Origin: Chlamydiota bacterium
GTDB lineage: Bacteria > Acidobacteriota > Terriglobia > Terriglobales > Acidobacteriaceae
Direction: 5' to 3'
DNA length: 28,279 nt
NCBI GenBank assembly: GCA_050257615.1
Contig: JBLMXE010000103.1
Location: 1-28,279 of the forward strand
The first letter of the stretch is position 1. Each line of letters starts with the position of its first letter. Of the stretch, positions 133-27,005 are shown in pieces. The notes beneath the pieces were generated by a model. The model was given only the letters and a program-made list of their open reading frames with translations, made no database searches and was not told the origin of the DNA. A program made the translations under genes and the position numbers.

Positions 133-3100
133 ATGAAGTCTCGTCGTATACCCGCGTTTCTCCTCGCGGTCTGCGCGTGCTTCGGTTCTCGCTGCGCACA
201 GGCAGCCGCCTCCCAGCAAACAAAAGCGCCACCATCTGAAGCGGTGACGACCACCATCCCGGGTCCGCTGTACTCCTTCCTTCGTATGGCGGCGATCAGC
301 CGGCAGGTTCCGCCGGAAGACGTGCTGCCTCTTCTGGCACGCAATGTGGTCACCCATGGCTATGAGGGATGGCAGGATAGGCCCGGCTCGCCAACCGAAT
401 TTCTGGTGCTGTTGAGCCGCTATGTGCAACAGGCACGGGAGTTGACGAAACTGGCGGGCGCCGAGGGCGTCATTCGCGTTGCCAATTGCGAGCAAGCGAC
501 ACCCCTGCTGCGCATCCTCGGTTATCGTTTCCGCCAAGGTTGTGGCAGCGCACTGGCAGCCGCCAATCCCGACAGGGCATTCCTCACCATTGATGCAGGT
601 TTCCCGCTGGTGGATTTGGAAACCGATCTCCATGACCGCAAACCTTTCATATACCCATTTCACGGTTTTTCCGTACCGGTGCTGTTTCGCGAGAGCGACT
701 GGACGTCACTGCGACAAATCAGGGGGAACACCGTCCTTGACGCCCTGCTGGAGGATCCAGCATTGGCGCGCCTTTACGTGGCGCTTTCTCACCTCGATCC
801 CGAAACTCGACTTGCTTTGAAGCAATCTCCCGGATTAAGCAAGCTGGTTGGGGTTTCGCCCGCGCTCGACTTCTATGGAACTCAAATTGCGATCCGTTCT
901 GGCCAGGTTGTGGTGCCGGGAGGAACCGCGGCGGACTCGGCCTGGAAGGATCTGGTGGGCGCAAGTCCGGCCTCCCCAAGCCAATTCATACTGCACCTAT
1001 TGAGCAAGGACCAGGGCTGGCTGGCGGCCTACTTCGATTCGTTGTCGCGTACCAGTCGTGAACGGCAAGCATACTTCGCCGAGCCGCACCGGTTGGCGCG
1101 CTTCTATCACGCGCTGCGCGGGCGCGATCCATTTCCTGACGCCTACAAACGGGCATTCCGTCCCAACCCGGGTTTGTTGCTCCTGGTGACTCGCCTTCGC
1201 CTGGGGCCGGACGGAGAGCCCCAGGTCCCTGGCAACCTGGAAGTATGGAAAGAGATTTTTCGCCAGAAAAGCGATTCCAAGATCATCCGCAAACTGGGGA
1301 AACAGGCTCATACTTGGAAAACTCCGGACCAACTGGTGGAAGCGCTGTTCGGAGCTACCCGGGCGGGAACGGAGACTGGGCCCCTGCAAATCTACCTCTC
1401 AATAAGCGAACTGGATGCTGAGCGTTCCCCGGCAGGCCGCCTGGCGCCGCAAACCGTGCGCCTGCTGGCCGATAAGTTCGCAAAGTTCAGAGATCAATAT
1501 CTGATTTTTTCCGAGTTTCCGGATCTGAATAATGCTTCGATCGTTCGCTTTCTGACTATTGCGGACGGCCTCGATCGGATTTCCGATCCCACCCTGCGCG
1601 GCAACGCCATGGGAATTTTTCAAAGCAATGTTGGACTTTGGCAGATTCTGGCTCGCCAGGGGCAGATTCCCAGGACGTTGCTGAACCAGTCGTGGCGGCA
1701 GGTTACCGCCCCATTTGCCAGGATTACCTCTGCTGCCCAGCTCTTCGATGCCGGGCGCGGCTCATTGCGAGAATTGATGAAGGCCGCGACGGGGAAATCC
1801 AGCTGTTCGCAGGATGAAATCGTCGAGTTACTGGCTGGCCCTCAGCAGCCCAGTCCCGAGGCCCGCCAGGTACACGAGGAGCTGGCCAAGAAACTTCGCT
1901 CGGACCTGAACGGTCAGCGGCTGGTTTCCCTGGACACGATCCTGGCGTTGGGGGAGCAACTAGATGCCGCGGCAAAGACCAGGAGCACGGCTCCAGTGGA
2001 AATTCCTCTGGCCGGAGAGCTGCAGGAGTTCGAGATGCCGAGACCTATTTTCAGTCGCGGCGAGAGAACGGAATGGGCCACAGGAGTCTATAACAACCGT
2101 CACACCGATTTAGAGATGCGTACGGACTTGGCCAAATTGATGAAATCCCATCCCTCGTCCAGACGATTGATCAAGGCTCGTGGCGAGCTTACACCATTCC
2201 TGCGCGACGCTCTGGTGGGGTTTAATTATGCCTATTATGAACCACCAGGCTCTCAGATTCTCCGCACCAATCCTCTTTTCGTCCGCTCCCATGACTTCGC
2301 CGGGGAAACGCTGGCGGGAATGACTTCCATGTGGCAAGCCCCGCAGTTGCTTGGAGTTGGCTACCCCGCCGGCGGAGGCGCTCATTTGGTGGGTTCGCTT
2401 GCCTACCTTCCCTATGTGCTGGCAGAGGCCGAGGAGGACTTCATCGCGCCCAAAAATGTTCAGGCGCTTATCTGGAAGGAGATGGCGGCCGTCCTCTTAA
2501 CTGACGCGACCCTGTCGCGGTGGTGGAACGTGGGCCGGAACGAGCTCCACGCCGTGGCGCTTTACCAGCAAGCCGGCGAGGAGCTTCTGGCTGCTTCAGA
2601 AAAAGACGGGCGGTTGAGAGATAAAGTGATCGCCATCCTCGGAGATCGCATGACGCCGGCGAGGCTGGGGCGAGTGGAAGCGGCTCTGCAAACGGGAGGC
2701 CTCGCCAAGGCAGAGGCGGAGATCATGCCGGCAGATACCTTCTTTCTGGAGGCTGAGTTTCGCCAAGGGTTTCCTGAGGAGAGCAATTCTTCCGGACCTG
2801 CAGGGAAGGAATTGCAGGTGCTTGCCAGCCGGCACCCTGCAGAGGTCAATTGGAAACGACTGTCCCGAGACTTCGGTGTGCCACACCCCATGCTGGCGCA
2901 AACTTATGCGCGCGAGTTGCTGAATGTGCAGCCGTTCCCCGCCTGCGAGGGATACGGCAGCGCTTTGCTGGCGGAGTCCTGGGAATCGAACTATCTTTAC
3001 TGGGCCCGAGTGGCAGACGCGGCGGGCTATTCACCCGTGATGCTCAACGAATTGGTTCCGGAACTTACCCGACGCATGGTGGAAGAAATCTTTGCTACCG

Positions 3101-3243
3101 ATACGGAAGATTGGCCGGCATTGCTTCGGGCACTGCGCCAAACAGGAGAAGAATTGCGCGCCGGAAAACTTGCGGTGCTGCCTCCGAAGCATTCGATTCT
3201 GCGGGCGGCGGATTCGCCAGGCACGAAAAAGAATCCGGATTAG
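133..3243 (+). CDS. large secreted hypothetical protein (1036 aa)
   Basis: Long ORF with an N-terminal signal-peptide-like segment (MKSRRIPAFLLAVCACFGSRCAQA). No catalytic motif recognised. Followed after 34 nt by the VWA gene. Confidence 0.85.
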   Translation: MKSRRIPAFLLAVCACFGSRCAQAAASQQTKAPPSEAVTTTIPGPLYSFLRMAAISRQVPPEDVLPLLARNVVTHGYEGWQDRPGSPTEFLVLLSRYVQQARELTKLAGAEGVIRVANCEQATPLLRILGYRFRQGCGSALAAANPDRAFLTIDAGFPLVDLETDLHDRKPFIYPFHGFSVPVLFRESDWTSLRQIRGNTVLDALLEDPALARLYVALSHLDPETRLALKQSPGLSKLVGVSPALDFYGTQIAIRSGQVVVPGGTAADSAWKDLVGASPASPSQFILHLLSKDQGWLAAYFDSLSRTSRERQAYFAEPHRLARFYHALRGRDPFPDAYKRAFRPNPGLLLLVTRLRLGPDGEPQVPGNLEVWKEIFRQKSDSKIIRKLGKQAHTWKTPDQLVEALFGATRAGTETGPLQIYLSISELDAERSPAGRLAPQTVRLLADKFAKFRDQYLIFSEFPDLNNASIVRFLTIADGLDRISDPTLRGNAMGIFQSNVGLWQILARQGQIPRTLLNQSWRQVTAPFARITSAAQLFDAGRGSLRELMKAATGKSSCSQDEIVELLAGPQQPSPEARQVHEELAKKLRSDLNGQRLVSLDTILALGEQLDAAAKTRSTAPVEIPLAGELQEFEMPRPIFSRGERTEWATGVYNNRHTDLEMRTDLAKLMKSHPSSRRLIKARGELTPFLRDALVGFNYAYYEPPGSQILRTNPLFVRSHDFAGETLAGMTSMWQAPQLLGVGYPAGGGAHLVGSLAYLPYVLAEAEEDFIAPKNVQALIWKEMAAVLLTDATLSRWWNVGRNELHAVALYQQAGEELLAASEKDGRLRDKVIAILGDRMTPARLGRVEAALQTGGLAKAEAEIMPADTFFLEAEFRQGFPEESNSSGPAGKELQVLASRHPAEVNWKRLSRDFGVPHPMLAQTYARELLNVQPFPACEGYGSALLAESWESNYLYWARVADAAGYSPVMLNELVPELTRRMVEEIFATDTEDWPALLRALRQTGEELRAGKLAVLPPKHSILRAADSPGTKKNPD

Positions 3244-3277
3244 CGTCCGTGTGGGGTTTGGAATTGCAGAGGTTTCC

Positions 3278-4351
3278 ATGATGAAACGCTGTCTTCTCCC
3301 CTTGGCATTGCTCGCAGCATTTATGGTGTGTCCCGGGGCCGGAACTGTGGCCCAGGAAGGCGAGTCGCGAATTTTCGTCGTCGTGGACATGGTGCAATTG
3401 AATGTGGCGGTGACGGACAACAAGGGCAATTACGTAACCGGGCTGCAACCGAAGGATTTTGCGGTTTCGGAAGATGGCATTTCGGAACGAATTGCCACTT
3501 TCGGAGAGGGCAACGAGCCTACTCGCCCGCTGTTGCAGGTGGCCGGTGATAACGCCCCCCCGCAAGGTGATGCATTGCGGGGTTCGCACCGGGGTGGAGA
3601 TTCGGAGAATCCACCAGAAACCTTCGCTTCAGCCATAGCCGGGGCCAACGTTTTCATCCTGTTCGACACCAGCAATTATATGTACCGGCATTTTGTGTTC
3701 GCGCAGGACGCCATTGCCGATTTTATCCGCACTTTGGAATCCGCCAACAAAATAGCTTTCTATTCCTACAGCCGTGATCTGCTGCGAGCCACTCCTCTCA
3801 CACCCGATCGTTCGCAGGTCTTGCGTGGCGTGCGCTCGACCGTGGCGGGGGATGACGCCGCGCTTTACAACGCTTTATTGCTGACGGTGAAGGATGCGGC
3901 CCAGCAAACCGGACGCAAGGTGGTGGTTGTGTTTTCCAACGGGCCGGATAATGCCAGCACGGTGCCGCCGGAGGATGTGGCGGAGCTTGGCCAATCGAGC
4001 GGGGTTTCCATCTACATGATAAGTACTCAGCAAGCCCAGCTGGATCCCATTTCCACCGCGGTGTTTTCGCGGATGACCGCGGCAACCGGCGGGAAAGCGT
4101 ACTTTACCAGGAACTGGAACGATCAGGAAAAAGCGTTCGCTTCGATTCGCGATGATCTGGCCCACTTGTATTCGATCAGCTACTACCCTCAACCGAATCC
4201 CAATCGGGGCTGGCGTACTATTTCGGTGAAATTGGTCGGTAAGCAACTCAAGAAGTATCACGTGCGCACGCGAAATGGATACCGGCCCCAGCCGGTGCGA
4301 TCCTCCGCGGGCAATGTCTCGGTTTCTCGCCCCCAGTCTGTCCCTCAGTAG
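3278..4351 (+). CDS. VWA-domain protein (acidobacterial VWFA-related type), secreted
   Basis: Start reassigned to ATG 3278 (GAGG upstream; signal peptide MMKRCLLPLALLAAFMVCPGAG). Has VVDMVQLNVAVTDNKGNYVTGLQPKDFAVSEDG, ILFDTSNY, RKVVVVFSNGPDN and a C-terminal YSISYYP..WRTISVKL..VRTRNGY typical of this family. Confidence 0.85.
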   Translation: MMKRCLLPLALLAAFMVCPGAGTVAQEGESRIFVVVDMVQLNVAVTDNKGNYVTGLQPKDFAVSEDGISERIATFGEGNEPTRPLLQVAGDNAPPQGDALRGSHRGGDSENPPETFASAIAGANVFILFDTSNYMYRHFVFAQDAIADFIRTLESANKIAFYSYSRDLLRATPLTPDRSQVLRGVRSTVAGDDAALYNALLLTVKDAAQQTGRKVVVVFSNGPDNASTVPPEDVAELGQSSGVSIYMISTQQAQLDPISTAVFSRMTAATGGKAYFTRNWNDQEKAFASIRDDLAHLYSISYYPQPNPNRGWRTISVKLVGKQLKKYHVRTRNGYRPQPVRSSAGNVSVSRPQSVPQ

Positions 4352-4376
4352 GGGCGAGGGTGCAACTTAGATCCTC

Positions 4377-7300
4377 TCAGTTCCCGTGCCCCGCAGGCTT
4401 TTCTTCGGCAGTAAGCCTGCCCGCTTCCGCCGCCGCGCTTTGCAGCTTCTGGCCGGCCACGTTGGCCTGCTGATCGAGCGCCTGGAACACGGCATATTGC
4501 GCCGGAGTTGGCCTGGCATAGGCGAGGTCAACATCCGCGGCCAGGTATGCCAGGTGGTCTCGCAATTTGGTTTCGTAGAGCAGGCTGCCTTCTGACGACT
4601 TCATGGCCATCTGGGCGACGTCGCCGATCTCGCGGTTGAGAGCTGCCAGCACACTGGCGGCCTGTGCGGTGGGCAAATAGTGAGCGGCAACGGCTTTCTG
4701 CAGATTATCGCGCGCCGCCAGCGCCCGATTGATGGCCTGGTCCAGTCTATCGAGATCGGTGTGAATCTGCTGATCCAGGGCCAGCCGCGCCGCTAGTTCC
4801 TGTGGCGTCGCGTGGAGTCTGGGATCGAGGCTGACAGAGAAACTCGCTTTCGTCGTCTGTCCGCCATACGTGAGCGCAACGGTGTAGTTGCCCGGCACGA
4901 CTTCAGGGCCCTCCACGGAGTCTTTTAGGCCGCCTGCAGGAATGGGCGCGTGGTATCCGGTCACCTCCGCCGCATAGGGATAGCGCAAGTCCCACTGGAA
5001 GCGATTCATCCCCGGCTCCACGGCCGTGAGCCTTTGTTCCTTTTCCCGAATCTGCTGATCCGTCGGCTCGGCGCTGTGGTCCACTTCGGCGGCCACATTC
5101 TCCTGGCCTTTTACGGTTTGCTCCTGGCCCGCCTGAGCCTCCTTTTCTTTTGCCTTCTCCTTCTTCTCTTTTTCTGTTTCCAGGTGCAGAACGAAGCTGC
5201 GAATTACTTTGCCTTGCGAATTTGCTATTTCCAGGCTGGCCGGCGTTTTGCCGTCATAGTTCTGGGGAAGGTGGAAGAAGATGGTAGCGCCGAACGGCGG
5301 GTTATCGCCCGCGTCGGGCACGCGCCGGGCTTCGGGGCTGGGCTTGCCATAGGCATGCGTGAGCCATGCCTGCTGGGGAGCAAACAAGAAAGCCGAATTG
5401 GCTGCCGCCAGCGGTTTCTTGGTCAGCTGCTCAAGAACCGTTAGGTTGTCCAGAATCCAAAACGCCCGTCCGTGAGTGGCGGCCACTACCTCCCCCTGGC
5501 GTGAATTAATGGCCAGATCGCGCACTTCGGTGACGGGCAGATTAAGAGTCAGAGGCTGCCAATGCGCCCCGGCATCCAGGCTGACATACACGGTGCTACG
5601 CGTGCCCAGGAAAAGCAGCGCGGGATCACTGGGATCCTGGCGAAGATCGAAAACAAATTCATCCGCCGGCAGTCCGGCTGTGATTGCGGTCCAGTGCCGG
5701 CCCAAGTCGGTGGTCTCGTAAACATAGGGACGGAAGTCGTCCCACATGTAGCGCCGAGCCGTGAGATAGGCGGTATTCTTGTCGGCGTGCGAAGGCTCAA
5801 TACAACTGATCCACGAGTCGGGCAGTCCCGGTGGAGTTACCAACTGCCAGCTTTTTCCTCCATCCGTGGTCACGTGGGCCAGGCCGTCATCCGAGCCGGC
5901 CCAGATCACGTTGCCGTCGAGCGGCGAAACCGCCAGCGCCGAGATGCCGGGATAAATCTCGGCTCCCGACTGGTCCAGGTCAACCGGCCCGCCGCTTGGT
6001 ATTTCCGTGCTTGCCCGGTTGCGCGTGAGGTCGGGCGAAATTCGCTTCCAGCTCTGGCCGTAATCGTCGCTCTTGAATACGTATTGAGCGGCGGTCAGCA
6101 GTTCCTTCGGATTAGCCGGCGAAAACAGAATGGGATGTGTCCAGCCAAACCGGTTCTTGAGTTCGTTTGATGCCGACCCTTCCTCATAGTTCGGCCATGG
6201 ACTCACGCTGTGATACTCTTCGCTGTCGCGGTCGTACCTCACAAAAATGCTGTAATACCCGCTGCCATAAGTGATCTTGGGATTGTCCGGTTGCGGCACG
6301 GAATAGGTGCTCTCGCCGTAGGCCACGCGGTGCCAGGCCGAAAGCGGAATTGTGCCTCCGCTGCTGGCGCTCGGCCCTTCGAATGACCCTTCGTCCTGCT
6401 GCGCGCCGAAAACGTGAAAAGGAAACTGATTGTCGAGATTGACGTGGTAGAACTGGCCGGTAGGCTGATTGTGCTCTGTGCTCCAGGTGTTGCCGCCGTC
6501 GGTTGAGACGGTGGCGCCGCCGTCGTTGCCTTCCAGCAGAATCCGCGTGTCATTCGGATTGATCCACACCACGTGATTGTCTCCATGGGGCGGCCGCAGC
6601 TTCTTGAATGTCTTGGCCCCGTCGTGCGAAACCCACAGCGCATCCACTTCCGGCGCGTACACGGTGTTGGGGTCCTTGGGGTCGGCGTAAATGGTCATGT
6701 AATAGAAGGCGCGCTGCCGCAGCTTCCACTCGCTGTTCACGCGCTTCCAGGTGGCGCCTGCGTCCTCCGAGCGGAACACGCCGCCTCCTTTTGCCTGCAT
6801 AATCGCGTACACAATATTCGAGTTGCTGGCAGCAACGGAAAGGCCGACACGCCCTAGAACGGTCTGCGGCAAGCCCTGGTTGTGGGAAAGATTCGTCCAA
6901 TGCTCGCCCCCGTCCGTGGTCTTATAGATACCGCTGCCCGGGCCCCCGCTGATAAGGCCCCACGGCATGCGCACGGCTTGCCACATCGCGGCATAGAGCA
7001 CGGCCGGGTTGTTCGGGTCCATCACCAGGCAGATGGCGCCGGTTTTGTCATCCACATACAGGATCTTTTTCCAGGATTTGCCGCCATCGCTGGACTTGAA
7101 AACGCCCCGTTCGGGATTGGAAGCGAACACGTGTCCCATGGAGGCGGCATAGACAACATTGGCATCCTTGGGATCCACGACGATCGCGCTGGTGGAGTGG
7201 GTTTCGCGCAGGCCGGCATAATGCCAGCTCTTACCCGCGTCCGTGGATTTGTAGATGCCGTCGCCGGGAATCACGTCGCTGCGTATGTCAGTTTCGCCCG

Positions 7301-20188: not shown

Positions 20189-20392
20189 ATGCGCACCAAC
20201 ATTGACATTGATGACCGCTTGATGCGGCAAGCCATGAGGTGCAGCCAGGCGCCGACAAAGCGGGCGGCGGTGGAAGCCGGGCTGCGACTGCTGATTCAGA
20301 CTCGCGCTCAGGCCGGTATTCGCCGCTGGCGTGGCAAAATCCGATGGCAGGGTGATTTGAACATCTCGCGCACAAGCCGCGTTTCGGAGTAG
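20189..20392 (+). CDS. vapB: type II toxin-antitoxin antitoxin, VapB family
   Basis: MRTNIDIDDRLMRQAM...TKRAAVEAGLRLL...RGKIRWQGDL..SR signature, directly upstream of a PIN gene. Confidence 0.9.
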   Translation: MRTNIDIDDRLMRQAMRCSQAPTKRAAVEAGLRLLIQTRAQAGIRRWRGKIRWQGDLNISRTSRVSE

Positions 20393-20400
20393 CACACTGC

Positions 20401-20838
20401 GTGGTGATCGTGGACACAACCGTTTGGGTTGACTATCTGCGGGGTGTGGAGAATTCTGAAACTGACTGGCTGAACCTTGAACTCGGCCGCCAGCGTCTGG
20501 GATTGACAGACTTGATCCTCTGTGAAGTCCTCCAGGGCATTCGCGACCCGGCTGCCTTTTCCCGCGTACTGCGCGAACTGCGCAAATTTGAGGTGTTTGA
20601 GACGGGCGGGGTGGAGCTGGCTGTCGCCGCCGCTGAGAATTTCCGCAAGCTCCGCGAACGGGGCCGCACAGTTCGCAAGACCATCGACTGCTTAATTGCC
20701 ACCTTCTGCCTTCGCGGCCGGCATTCTCTGCTGCACCGGGATCGCGACTTCGATCCATTCGAACAGATGCTCGGTCTTCCTGTGATTCACCCGCATCGGC
20801 CCGGGCAGGGAGCAGAGCCCTCCTTAGTCAAGCAATAA
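20401..20838 (+). CDS. vapC: PIN-domain ribonuclease toxin, VapC family
   Basis: IVDTTVWVDY, CEVLQG, RKTIDCLIA and LLHRDRDFD supply the four PIN acidic positions. GTG start. Confidence 0.92.
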   Translation: MVIVDTTVWVDYLRGVENSETDWLNLELGRQRLGLTDLILCEVLQGIRDPAAFSRVLRELRKFEVFETGGVELAVAAAENFRKLRERGRTVRKTIDCLIATFCLRGRHSLLHRDRDFDPFEQMLGLPVIHPHRPGQGAEPSLVKQ

Positions 20839-21367: not shown

Positions 21368-22030
21368 CTACGAACAGCCGCCGCCCAGGCGCAGCTTCTT
21401 CTCCGGCTTTTTTCCCTGCGGCGGTTGCTGGCTGGCGGGCAGAGGCGGAGGCGCAACCTGCGGCGCTGCGGTTCCCGCGGTCGCCGGCGCCACTCCGCTG
21501 AAGTAGGCGCGCAGCTGCCTGGCCTGCTGGTAGCCGGCCGGCGACTCGGTTGCAGAGCGCAGGCTGGTGGGCGTCATCACGTTCTCCCACCAGGCCGAGA
21601 TCCCTTCCCGCAGCGAGTAAGCCTTGTAACCTTTGAGGCTGAGCAGAAGCTGTGTCTGGGCGGCATGGCCGGCCCCCAGCCCGTATACCACCACCTTCTT
21701 TTCCCGCGAGAGCTTCTTGAGGTCGTCTGCCTGGAACAGCTGCGGCAGAGGCATGTTCACAGCCGTAGGAATATGATAGTCGTCGAATTGCCAGGGCTGG
21801 CGGATATCAATCAGCTGGTAATCCTGGCGTTTCTCCATGATCCAGCGCGCCAGTTCCAGTGGAGTCACGTGATCTTTCTCTTCCGCCATGTTCTGCGCCA
21901 CGGCCGCAGCATCCATGGGGAGCGCAGCGGTGCCGTGGGCAATGGTGGTCAGCAGCGCGATCAGGAGCCCAAGAAAAACGGCCGCAATGGCGGCCAGACG
22001 CTTTCCCGTCAGAACAAACTCTCGTCTCAT
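21368..22030 (-). CDS. membrane-anchored rhodanese-fold protein with a C-terminal GGGCS tail
   Basis: N-terminal hydrophobic helix and rhodanese motifs (LIDIRQPWQFDDYHIPTAVN; KKVVVY; SLREGISAW). Pro/Ala-rich linker, ends KKLRLGGGCS. ATGA overlap with the upstream gene and AGGAG RBS. Confidence 0.88.
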   Translation of the reverse strand: MRREFVLTGKRLAAIAAVFLGLLIALLTTIAHGTAALPMDAAAVAQNMAEEKDHVTPLELARWIMEKRQDYQLIDIRQPWQFDDYHIPTAVNMPLPQLFQADDLKKLSREKKVVVYGLGAGHAAQTQLLLSLKGYKAYSLREGISAWWENVMTPTSLRSATESPAGYQQARQLRAYFSGVAPATAGTAAPQVAPPPLPASQQPPQGKKPEKKLRLGGGCS

Positions 22031-22647
22031 GGCATCTCCTTCCTGACGAGTTTGCCATAAGTCCGGCCATATGAATCCCAGGAAGTTTCGCAGCGCTCGC
22101 CTGCCCAGAAGGCTCCCAGGGCTATGACTACGATGGCCAGCACCACCAGTCCCACGTTTAAGTCGAGCCAGAGGGGCAGCGTCAAAGCGCCCATGGAACC
22201 GGAGACATTAAACCGGCTGAAATTCGGCAGCTCCGCCCCAAACACAAAGATTCCCAGAAAGATCCCGACAATAAAGAAGAGCGCGTCCAGCTTGCCGATG
22301 GCGGCCGCCACCATCGAAGTGCCGGGACAATATCCGCCCACGATGAACCCGCTGCCCAGCAGCAGCCCGCCCACAATCTGCGGCCACAGAAAGGTCGGCG
22401 GCACATAGACCTGGCTCATGTCCAGCCAGCCCGCCACACCCAAATACGCAAGGCCCAGCATGGCTACCACGATGGCGGTGAACATCACCTTCAATACGGC
22501 GAAGTCTTTCAGATAGAACTGAGCCGTCAATTTACGCGCGCTGGAGAAGCCGGCCCGCTCCAGGAAAAAGCCGAAGAAGAATCCCAGCCCCACCGACACC
22601 ACCAGGTAGGTTGCCGTCGAAAAGGAAGCAGCGTAGGGAGCATTCAT
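22027..22647 (-). CDS. YeeE/YedE-family (TsuA-like) sulfur-compound transporter half
   Basis: LGFFFGFFLERAGF, LKVMFTAI, GGLLLGSGFIVGGYCPGTS signature. ATG 22647 has a GGAGG RBS and overlaps the upstream TGA (ATGA). Confidence 0.9.
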   Translation of the reverse strand: MNAPYAASFSTATYLVVSVGLGFFFGFFLERAGFSSARKLTAQFYLKDFAVLKVMFTAIVVAMLGLAYLGVAGWLDMSQVYVPPTFLWPQIVGGLLLGSGFIVGGYCPGTSMVAAAIGKLDALFFIVGIFLGIFVFGAELPNFSRFNVSGSMGALTLPLWLDLNVGLVVLAIVVIALGAFWAGERCETSWDSYGRTYGKLVRKEMP

Positions 22648-24035
22648 AGCCAAAACCTCCGCAGGAAGTAAGCGCCCGCAAAGCCGGCGGCAAACACACT
22701 GAGCATGAAAGCGAAGGCGCCCACGGAGAGCACCGCGCCTCCGGAGAGCGCCAGCCCGCTGGTGCAGCCGCGGGCCAGGCGCGCGCCCAGTCCGGTCAGG
22801 ATGCCCCCGCCCAGCGCCAGCGCATAACGGGTGGTGGCGCTGATGCGCGGTCCCTTGTCCACCGCCAAACGCGTGCGGTGCGCCAGCCAGCCGGAAACGA
22901 AGCCGCCCAGGGCCGCGCCGATTAACTCGAATACCAGAAAGTCAATCAGGGGCGACTGGCCGGGCTGAAGGTAATTGCTCCAGTAGGCGTTCGAGTTCGC
23001 ATAGCCTGGCGCGATCCAGGAGAGGAAGGCAACCAGGTAGCGGGTGAACCCGCCCGAGGCGCCCAGGCCCTGTCCCATAATCACAAAGGTGAGCAGCAGC
23101 GTGACGCCCAGCCCAAATCCGGCGGCATAGGGCGGCCAGTATCCCGGCTGGCGAAACACGCGCGTCAGCAAGCCCGGAGCTGCCGGCGCTGCTCCCCTCG
23201 TTTCCTCAGGAACTGCAGTTTCCGGCATCGCGGCCCTGGCCACGACCGTGCCGTTGGCCTGCGCCAGTTCCTCTTCAATCCCTTGTTCCCACTCCGCTTC
23301 GCGCATCTTCATCTCCCTCCACCATTTGAAGTGATGGCGGTAGGCGTACAGTTCATTGACCGTTCCGGTAATCATGGAGAAGAAGGCCGGTTTCTCCTCA
23401 GGGAAAACCGCGCCCATGTACACGTGAATCATCAAGCCCGAGACCACCATGCCCACCGCCACGAAGTGGAGCACTACGGCAAAACCGACTACCGTGGTGC
23501 TGATCAGGTGGAAGCTCATGACCAGACCCGTGGCCATAATCAGCGGAATCATGGCATAGACCATAAGGGCGAACATCTTCTGGCCGGCGTTGTAGACGCC
23601 CTGAGGTGGCAGATGTTCTTGTGTACGCCGCAGCAGCCGCAGGGTGCGGATTTTGAGCCACCGAAAATCGTCGCGGTCCAGGCCAATTTCCCGTTGCAGA
23701 ACTTGTTTCGCCAGGTAGGTGCGGAAGCCAAAGGTCCCGTACACCAGGAAAACCGCGATCCATACCAGGCCGACGGTGATGTGGAAGCGCAGCATGTCGG
23801 CGCGCGTGCCGAAGAAGCCCTGGATCAGGTTGATATACCAGTAAGGCACAATGCGGAAGTGCGGCGAGGAGATGAGGGCTGTCCCCGTCGCCAGCTCCGC
23901 CAGCCACACGGTGGCATTGAACCAGTGCAGCAGCATGATGGCCACATGGTGCTTCTTGATTTGCCGCTGCGCCATGGCTTCCGCTTGCTGCCCGCTGAGG
24001 GCAACCGGCTTCATCGGCAAATTGCTGGTGACCAT
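22644..24035 (-). CDS. fusion of an FdnI/PhsC-type di-haem cytochrome b and a YeeE/YedE transporter half
   Basis: N-terminal part: LLHWFNA, FHITVG, PPQGVYNAGQK, VLHF-x-MIHVYM with His residues 14 apart, SMITGTV..AYRHH..W. Then a charged and Pro/Ala linker. From residue ~299: YWPPYAAGFGLG, GLGASG, GGFVSG, GARLARGCTSGLALSGG. Single uninterrupted frame with a GAGGAGG RBS. Confidence 0.9.
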   Translation of the reverse strand: MVTSNLPMKPVALSGQQAEAMAQRQIKKHHVAIMLLHWFNATVWLAELATGTALISSPHFRIVPYWYINLIQGFFGTRADMLRFHITVGLVWIAVFLVYGTFGFRTYLAKQVLQREIGLDRDDFRWLKIRTLRLLRRTQEHLPPQGVYNAGQKMFALMVYAMIPLIMATGLVMSFHLISTTVVGFAVVLHFVAVGMVVSGLMIHVYMGAVFPEEKPAFFSMITGTVNELYAYRHHFKWWREMKMREAEWEQGIEEELAQANGTVVARAAMPETAVPEETRGAAPAAPGLLTRVFRQPGYWPPYAAGFGLGVTLLLTFVIMGQGLGASGGFTRYLVAFLSWIAPGYANSNAYWSNYLQPGQSPLIDFLVFELIGAALGGFVSGWLAHRTRLAVDKGPRISATTRYALALGGGILTGLGARLARGCTSGLALSGGAVLSVGAFAFMLSVFAAGFAGAYFLRRFWL

Positions 24036-24044
24036 GGCTCCTCC

Positions 24045-24779
24045 TCAGTCCTCAAAATCCTTTTCCCCGGTTTTCAGCTGACGGAAAAATGCGATCGCCT
24101 GGCCCAGGAAGGTGGCTCCCACCGCAGCCAGCACCAGTGGCTTCAAAAACCGGTCCCACATAGCGCCAGCTGCCAGCAGCGTGGGTTTGTGCGGCGGAAA
24201 CGTGGCCAGCACCAGGTCCACATGTTCCTGCTTGCCCAGGTAGTACACATTCGGGCCGATGGCGACGTCCGAGGTTTCCAGGCGGCGCGCGCCCTCCTCA
24301 TACACCATCCGGAACACATCGCTGCTGGAGTCTTCCAGGTTGCCGAAAAACTTGGCATGCGCGGTACAAGTTGTGACGCAGATGGGAAGCTGTCCGCGTT
24401 CCAGGCGCGCCGAACAGAAATCACACTTATCCACCTTGTTGATGGCTGGGTTGAGATAGCGGGCGCCGTATGGACAGGCGTCCACGCAGTAGCCGCAGCC
24501 AATGCACAGGGTGTGGTCCACCTTCACAATTCCGCTCGCTTCATCCTGGTAAGTGGCCCCGGTCGGGCAGGGCGCGATGCACGCTGGCCGGTCGCAGTGG
24601 TTGCACTGCGCCACGTAGAAAGTGGAGAGCAAACGGGGAAAAGTTCCGGCAATGCCGGTGAAGCGGATGTGGGTGCGCGCGTAGCCTGCCGGTACCTCCC
24701 ACTCCGAGTTGCAGGCCACGGTGCAGGCCTGGCAGCCCACGCACTTCCTCAAATCCACGACCATGGCGTAACGTGGCAT
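24045..24779 (-). CDS. psrB: 4x[4Fe-4S] electron-transfer subunit (PsrB/PhsB/NrfC family) with a C-terminal membrane helix
   Basis: CVGCQACTVAC, CNHCDRPACIAPCP, CIGCGYCVDACP, KCDFC..CVTTC. Hydrophobic tail PLVLAAVGATFLGQAIAFF. Confidence 0.9.
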   Translation of the reverse strand: MPRYAMVVDLRKCVGCQACTVACNSEWEVPAGYARTHIRFTGIAGTFPRLLSTFYVAQCNHCDRPACIAPCPTGATYQDEASGIVKVDHTLCIGCGYCVDACPYGARYLNPAINKVDKCDFCSARLERGQLPICVTTCTAHAKFFGNLEDSSSDVFRMVYEEGARRLETSDVAIGPNVYYLGKQEHVDLVLATFPPHKPTLLAAGAMWDRFLKPLVLAAVGATFLGQAIAFFRQLKTGEKDFED

Positions 24780-24797
24780 TGTCCAACCTCAACCCGG

Positions 24798-27005
24798 CTA
24801 AGTGCTCTCCTTCAGCACGCGCACAAAGTTCACCCGCATGCCGGTGCCGCCCATCAGGGGATCAATGTTCACCCGCGTCATCAGTTCGGTATCAGAAGCG
24901 CCGCGGTGGTAGGCACGGCGCAGCTTGCGCGATTCGTGGCCGAAGCCGTGAACCATATAGACGCAGTCGCGCCGAATCCCGGGCGTGACCCGCACTTCCA
25001 CCGGCAAGCTGGTGGCGCCGTCCTGATTCTGCAATGTCACACGGTCGTCGTCTTCCAGGCGCAGGTCGCGGGCCGCGTCGGCGTTGATCCACACCGCGTT
25101 CTCCGCCATCAGCGCGTCCAGCACCTTATTGTTCTGGCTGCGCGCAAAAGAGTGCACTGGCGCCCGCCCATAGATCAGCCGGAAATATCCCAGGGGAGGA
25201 TCGGTCACCGGGGTGTAGCGCGGCATGGGATCGGCCCCCAGTTGCTTCAAAGTGGAGGAATAGAGCTCGATCTTGCCGCTGGGCGTGGCAAACAGCGGCC
25301 CATCGGCGGGCGTGCGGTCTTCTATGTAGGGATGGCCGGGAAAAGCTAAGGCCCCGCGCACCGCCAGCGTCCTCATATTCACGTCCAGGGGGCCTACCAG
25401 GGTTTGCAGATGCTCTTCCGGAGTCTTCCAGGGGAACCAGGCCTGCAACCCAAGTCGTTGCGCCATCTGCTGCGCGATCCACCAGCCCGGCTTGGATTCG
25501 TAAAGCGGGTCCACCACCGGCTGCCGTACCGACACAAACGGCTGCTTGGCGCTCTCCGCCATCATGGGCGCGTCATAGCGCTCCAGGTAGGTGGCTTCGG
25601 GCAGCACCAGGTCGGCGTAGTTGGCCTGTTCCATGGGCATCACGTCCACCACCGCCATGAATTCAAGCTTCTCGATCGCTTGCAGCGTTCGCTGCCGCTG
25701 CGGAATACTCTCCAGAACGTTCTGTCCGTAAACCACCCAGGCTTTGATGGGATAAGGTTTGCCGGTGAGCGTGGCCTCCACCAGGCCGTTGGTGACTCCC
25801 TGTTCTTCGGAGGCGAGAGGATAGGTGGTGCCGGCGCCATCAGCCCGGCCTAGTTGTGATTCTGGAAACGGCGGCAGGGCGAACTTACCCTTCTTCAGCG
25901 GCGTAGGAAGGAAGATGCCGCCCTTGCGCCCCCAGCTTCCGGTCAGCGCGGTCAGAATGGCCATGGCGCGCTCGCGTTGCGTGTCGTCGCCATACCAGGT
26001 GGCATGCCGCCCCGGGTGCAGCGCCACTGCCGGCTTGGCCTGCGCCATGGCGCGCGCCGTTTCCCGAATCTGCGGCGCGGGAATTTCCGTAATCGGCTCC
26101 GCCCACTCGGGGGTGAATTCGCGCACGTAGGAGGCAAGCTCGCTGAATCCAGTTGCGTATTTCGTGATGTATTCGCGGTCGTAACCTCCTTCCGCGATCA
26201 AAACGTTCATCCACGCCAGCAGCAGCGCGATGTCGGTTCCCGGGCGGACGGGCAGCCACCAGTCCGCCTTGGCGGCCGCCGTGGAAAACCGCGGATCAAC
26301 CACGATCAGTTTCGCGCCCCGCGCCAGACCTTCGGCAAACGCGGTCACCTGGGAAGTGAAAATGTTTTCCCCGATGTGCGAGCCGATCAGCACCATCAGC
26401 TTGGCTTCTTCCAGGTCCACCGGCTCGGGCGAACCCAGGCCATGCCCGAAGGTCAGCGCATAGCCGACCTCACGCGGCCCCCGGCATTGTGCGAACGCAG
26501 GCTCGGCGGCGTTGGGCGTGCCGTAGGCCTTCATCAGGGTGGCGAAAAATCCCGAAGCGACGCCGTGAGGGAAGAAAGCCACGCTCTCCGGGCCATATTT
26601 CTTTTTCAGATCAGAAAGGCGCTGGGCGAAGAAGTCGAGCGCCTGCTCCCAGGTGATCCGCCGGAAACTGCCTTCGCCGCGCGCACCCGCGCGCAGTTGC
26701 GGATATTTCAGGCGGTCGGGATCATAGAGCAGGGAGGCGCCGGCATTGCCGCGGGCGCACAGCCGTCCCCGGGTCAGCGGATGGTCGGGGTTGCCTTCCA
26801 GCTTGACCACCTTCCCGTCCGCCACTTCCGCGATCACGCCGCAGCGCCAGAAGCACATTTCGCAGTTGGTGGCGATCTGCTCGGTACGGCGCGTGCCGCT
26901 CCAGCCCGGTGGGTGGTTCTGGGCAGTGGCCGCTTCCGCCACCAGTCCGGCCCCGGCGAGCGAAGAAAGCTTGAAAAAATCCCTGCGGCTCAGCTTGTCG
27001 TTCAT
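24798..27005 (-). CDS. psrA: polysulfide/thiosulfate reductase-type molybdopterin (bis-MGD) catalytic subunit, Tat-exported
   Basis: SRRDFFK Tat motif, CEMCFWRC..LCARG FS0 cluster, PESVAFFPHG, and PNAAEPAFAQCRGPR (Cys Mo-ligand position as in PsrA). Also VDPRFSTAAAKADWWLPVRPGTD, DLVLPEATYLER, ATPSGKIELYS. Substrate (polysulfide, thiosulfate or other) cannot be fixed by eye. Confidence 0.88.
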   Translation of the reverse strand: MNDKLSRRDFFKLSSLAGAGLVAEAATAQNHPPGWSGTRRTEQIATNCEMCFWRCGVIAEVADGKVVKLEGNPDHPLTRGRLCARGNAGASLLYDPDRLKYPQLRAGARGEGSFRRITWEQALDFFAQRLSDLKKKYGPESVAFFPHGVASGFFATLMKAYGTPNAAEPAFAQCRGPREVGYALTFGHGLGSPEPVDLEEAKLMVLIGSHIGENIFTSQVTAFAEGLARGAKLIVVDPRFSTAAAKADWWLPVRPGTDIALLLAWMNVLIAEGGYDREYITKYATGFSELASYVREFTPEWAEPITEIPAPQIRETARAMAQAKPAVALHPGRHATWYGDDTQRERAMAILTALTGSWGRKGGIFLPTPLKKGKFALPPFPESQLGRADGAGTTYPLASEEQGVTNGLVEATLTGKPYPIKAWVVYGQNVLESIPQRQRTLQAIEKLEFMAVVDVMPMEQANYADLVLPEATYLERYDAPMMAESAKQPFVSVRQPVVDPLYESKPGWWIAQQMAQRLGLQAWFPWKTPEEHLQTLVGPLDVNMRTLAVRGALAFPGHPYIEDRTPADGPLFATPSGKIELYSSTLKQLGADPMPRYTPVTDPPLGYFRLIYGRAPVHSFARSQNNKVLDALMAENAVWINADAARDLRLEDDDRVTLQNQDGATSLPVEVRVTPGIRRDCVYMVHGFGHESRKLRRAYHRGASDTELMTRVNIDPLMGGTGMRVNFVRVLKEST

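Follow-up and report, generated by a model that had tools for sequence, protein, structure and literature searches.

We analyzed a 28,279-nucleotide stretch of DNA, hereafter the window (contig JBLMXE010000103.1 of assembly GCA_050257615.1, deposited as Chlamydiota bacterium and placed by GTDB in the Acidobacteriaceae of the Acidobacteriota), for an open reading frame (ORF) that joins a cytochrome b to one half of a YeeE/YedE-type transporter. The ORF occupies positions 22644-24035 of the minus strand and encodes 463 amino acids in an uninterrupted reading frame, with a GGAGGAG ribosome-binding site 5 nucleotides before its ATG. It lies within a run of five tightly packed minus-strand genes (21368-27005) in the order psrA, psrB, cytb::yeeE-C, yeeE-N and a gene for a rhodanese-like protein. 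The parts of the fusion and its key codons are as follows.

23286..24035, minus strand: predicted FdnI-type di-haem cytochrome b with four transmembrane (TM) helices and a YNAGQK motif (fusion residues 1-250; assigned by PF01292, TIGR01583 and FdnI sequence and fold)
23925-23927, minus strand: codon of putative haem ligand H37
23781-23783, minus strand: codon of putative haem ligand H85
23466-23468, minus strand: codon of putative haem ligand H190
23424-23426, minus strand: codon of putative haem ligand H204
23142..23285, minus strand: charged, then Pro/Ala-rich linker, predicted to be cytoplasmic (fusion residues ~251-298)
22644..23141, minus strand: C-terminal-type (PmpA/YedE1-like) half of a split YeeE/YedE channel (fusion residues 299-463 plus the stop; PF04143)
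22764-22766, minus strand: codon of Cys424, in an invariant G-C-T-S motif (ARGCTSG in the window)

Two Pfam domains were found on this one polypeptide, in agreement with a preliminary description of the locus that had proposed a single ORF fusing a di-haem cytochrome b to a YeeE half. PF01292 (Ni_hydr_CYTB) covers residues 30-224 (E 1e-16; 61.5 bits against a cut-off of 30.1), and PF04143 (Sulf_transp) covers residues 229-451, corresponding to profile positions 101-308 (E 1e-13; 51.8 bits against a cut-off of 27). The NCBIfam model TIGR01583 scored 71 bits, under its equivalog cut-off of 115.85; by sequence, the cytochrome part is a member of the PF01292/TIGR01583 superfamily and not a formate dehydrogenase gamma equivalog. 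A phmmer search against the PDB matched the N-terminal part of the fusion to E. coli FdnI (1KQF_C, E 1e-12), and the homology extends to about residue 250. The cytochrome domain was modeled by AlphaFold2 with a predicted local distance difference test (pLDDT) value of ~90, and Foldseek superposed it on 1KQF chain C (E 6.7e-8; TM-score 0.78, normalised to FdnI). H37, H85, H190 and H204, which lie on TM1, TM2 and TM4 and of which the last two form an H-x13-H pair, were invariant in two alignments of fused homologues (12 and 48 sequences), as were N149, G151, Q152 and K153 of the YNAGQK motif. We take the four histidines to correspond to the FdnI haem ligands H18, H57, H155 and H169; the FdnI alignment shows directly only the TM4 pair (H155 and H169) and the YNAGQK stretch, which in FdnI presumably lines the menaquinone site. 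From these conserved ligands and the YNAGQK motif, the fusion is predicted to bind two haems b and menaquinone.

The transporter part of the fusion was assigned by comparison with the solved Spirochaeta thermophila YeeE (StYeeE, PDB 6LEO). A profile of the fused half aligned to StYeeE residues 239-328 (PDB match E 1.5e-8) and placed Cys424, the sole cysteine of the fusion, on Cys293. Every fused representative examined mapped to the second half of the PF04143 profile. The complementary half, which the preliminary description had located in the next gene, is indeed encoded there.

22027..22647, minus strand: N-terminal-type (PmpB/YedE2-like) YeeE half bearing an additional, fifth TM helix (PF04143 profile positions 2-151)
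22327-22329, minus strand: codon of the conserved cysteine of the N-type half in GGYCPGTS (residue 109 counted from TTG at 22653)

This N-type half of ~206 amino acids, with five hydrophobic segments by hydropathy, matched the other half of the PF04143 profile (54.9 bits against the same cut-off). Translation of this half probably begins at the ATG at 22647; this codon overlaps the fusion's stop codon as ATGA and has GGAGG 8 nucleotides upstream. A profile of the N-type half aligned to StYeeE 5-119 (PDB match E 8.8e-7), with Cys109 on Cys91; in the same alignment, an equivalent of StYeeE Cys22 was absent from this half. Cys109 and Cys424 were both invariant among homologues. The two halves also matched the NCBIfam YedE selenium-transporter families TIGR04112 and NF033796 weakly, far below the cut-offs. 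Foldseek run with the whole fusion model recovered FdnI and not YeeE, and the channel half folded alone gave pLDDT values of 50-77; the YeeE identity was therefore established by profile-to-PDB sequence searches and not by fold.

The choice of half appears to follow from membrane topology. In YeeE, the N terminus lies outside and the C terminus inside, with the topology inverted from one half to the other by helix 7; Cys293 faces the periplasm and Cys91 the cytoplasm, and both are essential (PMC7449682). Li et al. proposed that PmpB is the N-terminal and PmpA the C-terminal half of a heterodimer (PMC11582611). In the fusion, basic residues before TM1 fit a cytoplasmic N terminus. FdnI (1KQF) has four helices with, as we take it, both termini in the cytoplasm. 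Because FdnI ends in the cytoplasm and only the C-terminal-type half starts there, we infer that only this half could be appended to an FdnI-type cytochrome without an extra helix, which also agrees with the PmpB/PmpA proposal of Li et al.

We then asked of the fused half and the N-type half whether they are predicted to form a complex. The pair scored 0.58 against 0.00 for the best control, which counts as a weak pass: 58 of 80 solved complexes and 2 of 110 mismatched pairs cleared the pass mark, and scores of 0.60 or less were given by just 7 of the 80 solved complexes, yet by both passing mismatches. The runs agreed in at least 98% of contacts, and the partner pLDDT was at least 71.

The linker between the two domains is about 48-56 residues long (roughly 250-298). 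In the AlphaFold2 model, a long helix runs to residue 269 and is followed by a linker core (270-288) with pLDDT below 55. Among fused homologues, the linker varies from ~0 (L005, P0127) to ~60 amino acids and has no conserved position; it is a tether, not a domain. A false fusion produced by a lost stop codon or an indel in this region was a concern, since the contig belongs to a fragmented, 75%-complete metagenome-assembled genome, and the two domains lie in different frames in one Myxococcota locus (L032). However, Logan contigs from three other soil studies covered 22600-23363, 23059-23360 and 23169-23408 with zero differences and zero indels, so that three independent soil assemblies carry the linker with neither a stop nor an indel, and more than 120 independent clusters share the two-domain build. 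An assembly error or lost stop is ruled out by the independent contigs and this conservation, and we rate the chance of an artefact as practically nil. The Logan comparison and the survey of relatives below answer the checks that the preliminary description had called for. RNA run X17 yielded only short contigs over the cytochrome part, 90-99% alike, which we did not count as evidence of expression.

A search of 5.8 billion proteins returned 879 matches to the fusion. Among the best 120 of the 879, drawn from NCBI, ENA, JGI and Logan, both Pfam domains were present in 120/120 (64-90% identity, 426-490 amino acids); close relatives are fused, and do not encode the two domains separately with a stop in the linker. 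When 50%-identity representatives were searched exhaustively, six further, more divergent fused clusters emerged at 36-46% identity, all confirmed with Pfam. Across species-representative genomes, single-ORF fusions occur in the Acidobacteriota (Terriglobia, Acidobacteriaceae, Bryobacteraceae and a deep low-GC (guanine-plus-cytosine) family), and also in Calditrichaceae, Myxococcota, Acidimicrobiaceae and another Actinomycetota genome. In the Myxococcota locus L032:3902-5367, the cytochrome b and YeeE-half frames overlap, which may reflect a frameshifted fusion or a sequencing error. Separate proteins nevertheless represent the usual state, as had been supposed of the two parts. In Ignavibacteriota, cytb and yeeE-C are adjacent but separate: in L036 (Ignavibacteriales) they overlap as ATGA, a junction read base by base in this locus alone, and in three further loci they lie next to each other in separate frames. 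In Chloroflexota, the YeeE halves stand upstream of psrA within the same cluster.

A maximum-likelihood tree of 56 cytochrome b domains required at least four changes of the fused state. A single fused clade was rejected by the approximately unbiased (AU) test on the same domains (p 0.019), in a quick search with long branches and with the fused group named after the tree had been seen; the test does not distinguish several gains from one gain followed by several losses. The unpublished genome G024 figures solely in the cytochrome b tally of 56/401, as a weak cytochrome b match, and none of the conclusions depends on it.

The remaining genes of the operon encode a molybdoenzyme, its iron-sulfur (Fe-S) partner and a putative periplasmic sulfur carrier.

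24798..27005, minus strand: psrA/phsA-like molybdopterin catalytic subunit, 735 amino acids, with a twin-arginine translocation (Tat) signal (SRRDFFK), predicted to be periplasmic
24045..24779, minus strand: psrB-like four-cluster Fe-S subunit, 244 amino acids, with a C-terminal membrane helix (Fer4_11 and related Pfam families)
21368..22030, minus strand: membrane-anchored rhodanese-like protein, 220 amino acids, predicted to be periplasmic (PF00581, 59 bits)

The catalytic subunit matched Molybdop_Fe4S4 (PF04879), Molybdopterin and Molydop_binding in Pfam, and aligned with Thermus thermophilus PsrA (2VPW) over its full length with 746 bits; the molybdenum-ligand Cys173 of 2VPW is conserved (AQCRGP). 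The best NCBIfam model was PhsA (NF012032), at 529.9 bits against an equivalog cut-off of 694. By these matches the subunit belongs to the Psr/Phs clade of molybdenum bis(pyranopterin guanine dinucleotide) (Mo-bisPGD) oxidoreductases. The psrB-like subunit has a hydrophobic helix at 211-229, which we take to resemble that of FdnH, and its best NCBIfam relatives are TtrB, NrfC and DsrO. As predicted from sequence, the enzyme is a PsrA-type catalytic subunit on electron-transfer subunits of the Fdn-N type, presumably the same build as Salmonella PhsABC.

The rhodanese-like gene overlaps that of the N-type half by 4 nucleotides. Its product has a TM helix at 12-30 after MRRE..GKR, which predicts an N-in orientation with the domain in the periplasm. 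The catalytic cysteine is missing from the active-site loop (VVVYGLGAGH), likewise in the orthologues of L013 and L014, whereas the deep-branching L005 rhodanese retains it (VFCKTGGRG). The C terminus consists of a Pro-rich spacer followed by ...LRLGGGCS, and the pattern L-x-L-G-x-G-C-[ST] is conserved in orthologues. Pfam found the rhodanese domain alone in this protein and no SoxY fold; by analogy, the Gly-rich tails with a terminal cysteine look like a SoxY-style swinging arm. Besides the window, the loci listed for such tails are L013:9000-9644, L014:9081-9743, L007:1995-3239, L036:7914-8513 and 2845-5190, and L005:2947-3693. The five-gene order of the window recurs in L005, L013 and L014.

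Fusions between other pairs of these components were found in other lineages. In L007, the N-type half continues through a TM helix into a rhodanese-like domain ending in GGGC, and in L008 it continues through a TM helix into a tail ending in KSCS. The PsrA of L005 carries a C-terminal extension ending in ...EEEEGGC, and in L036 both PsrA and the rhodanese-like protein end in ...TIREGC. Fusions of the Fe-S subunit to an FdnI-type cytochrome b, ~470-500 amino acids long, were identified with Pfam in P0143, P0150 and P0138. At L077:5254-6723, a 490-amino-acid frame holds the cytochrome b in its second half, and its length is what suggests a fusion to the Fe-S subunit; long frames of this kind point to the same arrangement in L046 and L056, the three loci being Myxococcota/'Deltaproteobacteria'. 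Counting the window fusion, every component is joined to some neighbour in some lineage. Gene order also carries over between anchor types: among ten sampled loci from other phyla, an NrfD-type PsrC lay directly upstream of the closest free C-type half in seven and the Fe-S subunit in one, and the order anchor, C-half, N-half is kept with either type of anchor. We read the fusions of different pairs of parts and the kept gene order as pointing to a single complex and to a portable 'channel plus arm' cassette.

The cysteine of the N-type half is replaced in some relatives. At L014:8776-8829, L015:7707-7760 and L018:3821-3874, which represent two phyla, an in-frame TGA occupies the codon equivalent to Cys91 (GGY-TGA-PGTS), and ORF coordinates place a stop at the same codon of the N-type half in L019. 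The sequence after the TGA is nearly identical across L014, L015 and L018 and contains a conserved hairpin, and gene callers split the TGA-containing genes in two. The TGA probably encodes selenocysteine (Sec), because of its position and the cross-phylum nucleotide conservation and not because of folding energy: in a test for a selenocysteine insertion sequence (SECIS), minimum-free-energy folds of the region after the TGA were not significantly more stable than those of shuffled sequences (z -0.6 to -0.9). The window itself has TGT at the Cys109 codon; the stable hairpin after it (z -2.1) could be what is left of a SECIS. Its own genome encodes selA on contig C91 and a selD with an in-frame TGA at G000:C522:9951-10460, whose product is probably itself a selenoprotein. 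The YeeE-family selenoprotein already listed has a GUxSG motif (PMC13188914), which is the motif of the other half, so the Sec site described here appears to be different. The exchange of Sec and Cys suggests that this residue does chemistry and not just hydrogen bonding.

Taken together, the window holds a genuine, recurrent gene fusion within a five-gene operon, and we consider it somewhat more likely than not that its tether fixes channel and reductase in one supercomplex with a persulfide relay. We favor a single supercomplex because different combinations of these components are welded elsewhere. The tether would fix one channel per reductase. The periplasmic C-terminal cysteine arm would carry sulfane sulfur as a persulfide, derived from polysulfide or from the outer sulfur of thiosulfate, and would present it to the molybdenum site of PsrA. 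This site would exchange two electrons with menaquinone through the four Fe-S clusters of the B subunit and the two haems, with the quinone site on the cytoplasmic side. The arm could also hand its sulfur to the periplasm-facing Cys424, from which it would pass to the cytoplasm-facing Cys109 (Sec in relatives) and on to the cell interior. The reaction could run in either direction. In the reductive mode, quinol would reduce the sulfur to sulfide at the expense of proton-motive force, as Salmonella PhsABC reportedly does (Stoffels et al. 2012); in the oxidative mode, sulfide would become arm-bound persulfide, and a redox loop like that of Fdn-N would generate proton-motive force. For the split channel itself, YedE1E2 was shown to import zero-valent sulfur and to need both conserved cysteines, whereas full-length YeeE did not take it up (PMC10812762). 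More broadly, such supercomplexes might be widespread, with persulfides or selenosulfides that are never free moving from the arm to the molybdenum site and through a Cys/Sec relay in the YeeE channel, so that a quinone-linked molybdoenzyme would act on protein-bound sulfur and be mechanically coupled to its transmembrane transfer. We offer this extension tentatively and regard it as somewhat doubtful.

Several observations weigh against the supercomplex with its relay. A linker that is disordered and variable in length implies no fixed geometry, the support for the heterodimer from complex prediction is weak, and contact between the cytochrome domain and the channel was seen in no model. Many Acidobacteriota, including members of the window's own family, carry psrA-psrB-cytb at 58-66% identity and lack YeeE and arm genes in the vicinity; as far as gene content tells, the reductase operates in the absence of the channel and does not need the fusion. 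Caldithrix abyssi, which has a homologous cluster, did not respire sulfur or thiosulfate (PMC5317091), and the published YeeE model moves free thiosulfate without covalent chemistry (PMC7449682). Searches of the window's own 75%-complete genome found neither a TusA acceptor nor a dissimilatory Dsr system (no DsrA above the cut-off). Further PF04143 genes were not found there either; at this completeness, these absences say little about the direction of the reaction.

The chief alternative is a genuine but selectively neutral fusion: two adjacent, translationally coupled genes lost the stop codon between them, and the channel works as a conventional anion transporter for the uptake of free thiosulfate or the removal of the sulfite product, with no covalent cysteine relay, carrier arm or physical supercomplex. 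The L036 genes, separated only by ATGA, the three other Ignavibacteriota loci with adjacent, separate frames, the repeated gain or loss of the fused state on the cytochrome b tree, the disordered and variable linker, the non-covalent model of thiosulfate conduction (PMC7449682) and the TauE-family and ATP sulfurylase genes just downstream in L013 all agree with it. Neutrality fits poorly, however, with a fusion retained over 36-90% identity in several phyla, with the fusion of other component pairs in other lineages, with TGA (Sec) at the relay cysteine, and with a rhodanese domain that lost its catalytic cysteine and gained a conserved terminal one. It also sits uneasily with the fact that split YedE1E2 took up zero-valent sulfur and full-length YeeE did not (PMC10812762). 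We judge the neutral fusion, and with it a channel for free thiosulfate or sulfite, unlikely, while giving it real weight. The preliminary description had suggested fixed stoichiometry as one possible benefit of the tether. Fixed stoichiometry or physical coupling gains from the multi-phylum conservation, the kept gene order and the other fused pairs, whereas substrate channelling, likewise suggested there, is something we only infer.

Two further explanations look for the function elsewhere. The operon could be a selenium module, in which the PsrA-like enzyme reduces selenite or selenium and the channel imports reduced selenium for selenoproteins. SrrA of Bacillus selenitireducens is reportedly a PsrA-like selenite reductase, and rhodanese-domain proteins are said to accompany Srr. 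The weak TIGR04112 and NF033796 matches of the halves, Sec at the relay position in relatives, and SelA and a TGA-containing SelD in the genome point the same way. The NCBIfam scores, however, are far under the cut-offs, the catalytic subunit is closest to polysulfide reductase (746 bits), the window protein has Cys and not Sec, and the split YedE1E2 experiments concern sulfur (PMC10812762), all of which leaves a selenium module quite improbable. Still less probable is redox gating, put forward in the preliminary description, by which the haems would oxidise or reduce the channel cysteines so that the state of the quinone pool opens or closes the transporter. It could draw on the covalent proximity of the two domains and on the Cys22-Cys91 disulfide possible in StYeeE crystals (PMC7449682), but the Cys22 equivalent is absent here, and the single cysteine of the fused half is periplasmic whereas, by FdnI homology, the quinone site and the low-potential haem are on the cytoplasmic side. 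The linker of 0-60 amino acids is disordered and has no redox-active residue, and the same channel cassette follows haem-free NrfD-type anchors. Nothing in our results came out in favor of gating.

Compared with known systems, the window combines features that are otherwise found apart. Salmonella enterica PhsABC likewise consists of a periplasmic, Tat-exported Mo-bisPGD subunit, a four-cluster Fe-S subunit and a haem b anchor for menaquinone. In the window, by contrast, the PhsA score is below the cut-off, the anchor is fused to a YeeE half, and the other half and a cysteine-arm protein are added. The catalytic subunit is alike in Thermus thermophilus PsrABC (PDB 2VPW-2VPZ), with the molybdenum-ligand cysteine shared. 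There the PsrC anchor is, we believe, a haem-free NrfD-type protein, whereas the window has an FdnI-type di-haem cytochrome b and a PsrB with a C-terminal TM helix. E. coli FdnI (1KQF chain C) shares the four-helix di-haem fold, the His ligands, YNAGQK and the cytoplasmic C-terminal helix; the window cytochrome differs in having a PsrA-type partner and in continuing into a transporter domain. The proposed arm has functional parallels in the GGCGG swinging arm of SoxY with SoxCD and in the polysulfide-sulfur transferase Sud of Wolinella, which feeds Psr: in each, a periplasmic cysteine carries sulfur to a molybdoenzyme. The arm protein has no sequence relationship to SoxY and resembles it in function only, in a way that matches the proposed mechanism.

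The channel halves and the unfused cluster have precedents as well. Serratia PmpAB and Cupriavidus pinatubonensis YedE1E2 also consist of two homologous four-TM halves, each with one essential cysteine, encoded by adjacent genes (PMC11582611, PMC10812762). The window halves are longer (~165 and 206 amino acids against ~130), one is carried on a cytochrome b and the other has an extra TM helix, and the Cys91 equivalent is Sec in relatives. A phsABC-pmpAB-sulfurtransferase cluster with the same gene content and order is known from Ca. Electryonea clarkiae and Caldithrix abyssi (PMC9324843, PMC5317091), and Williams et al. suggested Pmp as the route of uptake for an unknown sulfur product of Phs (PMC9324843). 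Both this unfused cluster and the split halves with their cysteines (PMC11582611, PMC10812762) have been published before. The cluster was described as separate genes, with no mention of a fusion, of the loss of the rhodanese cysteine or of a cysteine arm (PMC9324843, PMC5317091). Our literature search, which most subscription journals lay outside, turned up no account of the fusion, of the topological reasoning behind it or of the network of fusions. The fused proteins themselves are common in sequence databases, where they appear under names such as 'formate dehydrogenase gamma subunit' or 'YeeE/YedE family protein'.

The co-location of split YeeE/YedE with Psr/Phs has been remarked before. 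Short of biochemistry, no genomic evidence that two proteins act jointly is stronger than an in-frame fusion that is conserved. Together, the fusions predict a complex of PsrA, PsrB, cytochrome b, the two channel halves and the cysteine-arm protein, and the prediction singles out Cys424, Cys109 and the terminal cysteine of the arm. It offers an explanation for the 'dead' rhodanese and a natural single-chain construct for structural work. Since the hosts are Acidobacteriota that abound in soil and peat, the system may be of consequence for cryptic sulfur cycling.

Two neighbourhoods outside the operon are of minor interest. In the Bryobacteraceae locus L013 (9697-15386), six genes lie downstream of the fused operon and encode an unknown 176-amino-acid protein, a TauE-family protein, a DUF1634 protein, a MerR-type regulator, an ATP sulfurylase and a CCG-domain Fe-S protein. 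The TauE-family protein presumably belongs to the sulfite exporters, and the group hints at a link to sulfite or sulfate metabolism that the window lacks. In the window, just downstream of the operon and on the opposite, plus strand, two ORFs of 67 and 145 amino acids lie 8 nucleotides apart at 20189-20838; from their sequences they look like an antitoxin and PIN-domain toxin pair of the VapB/VapC type.

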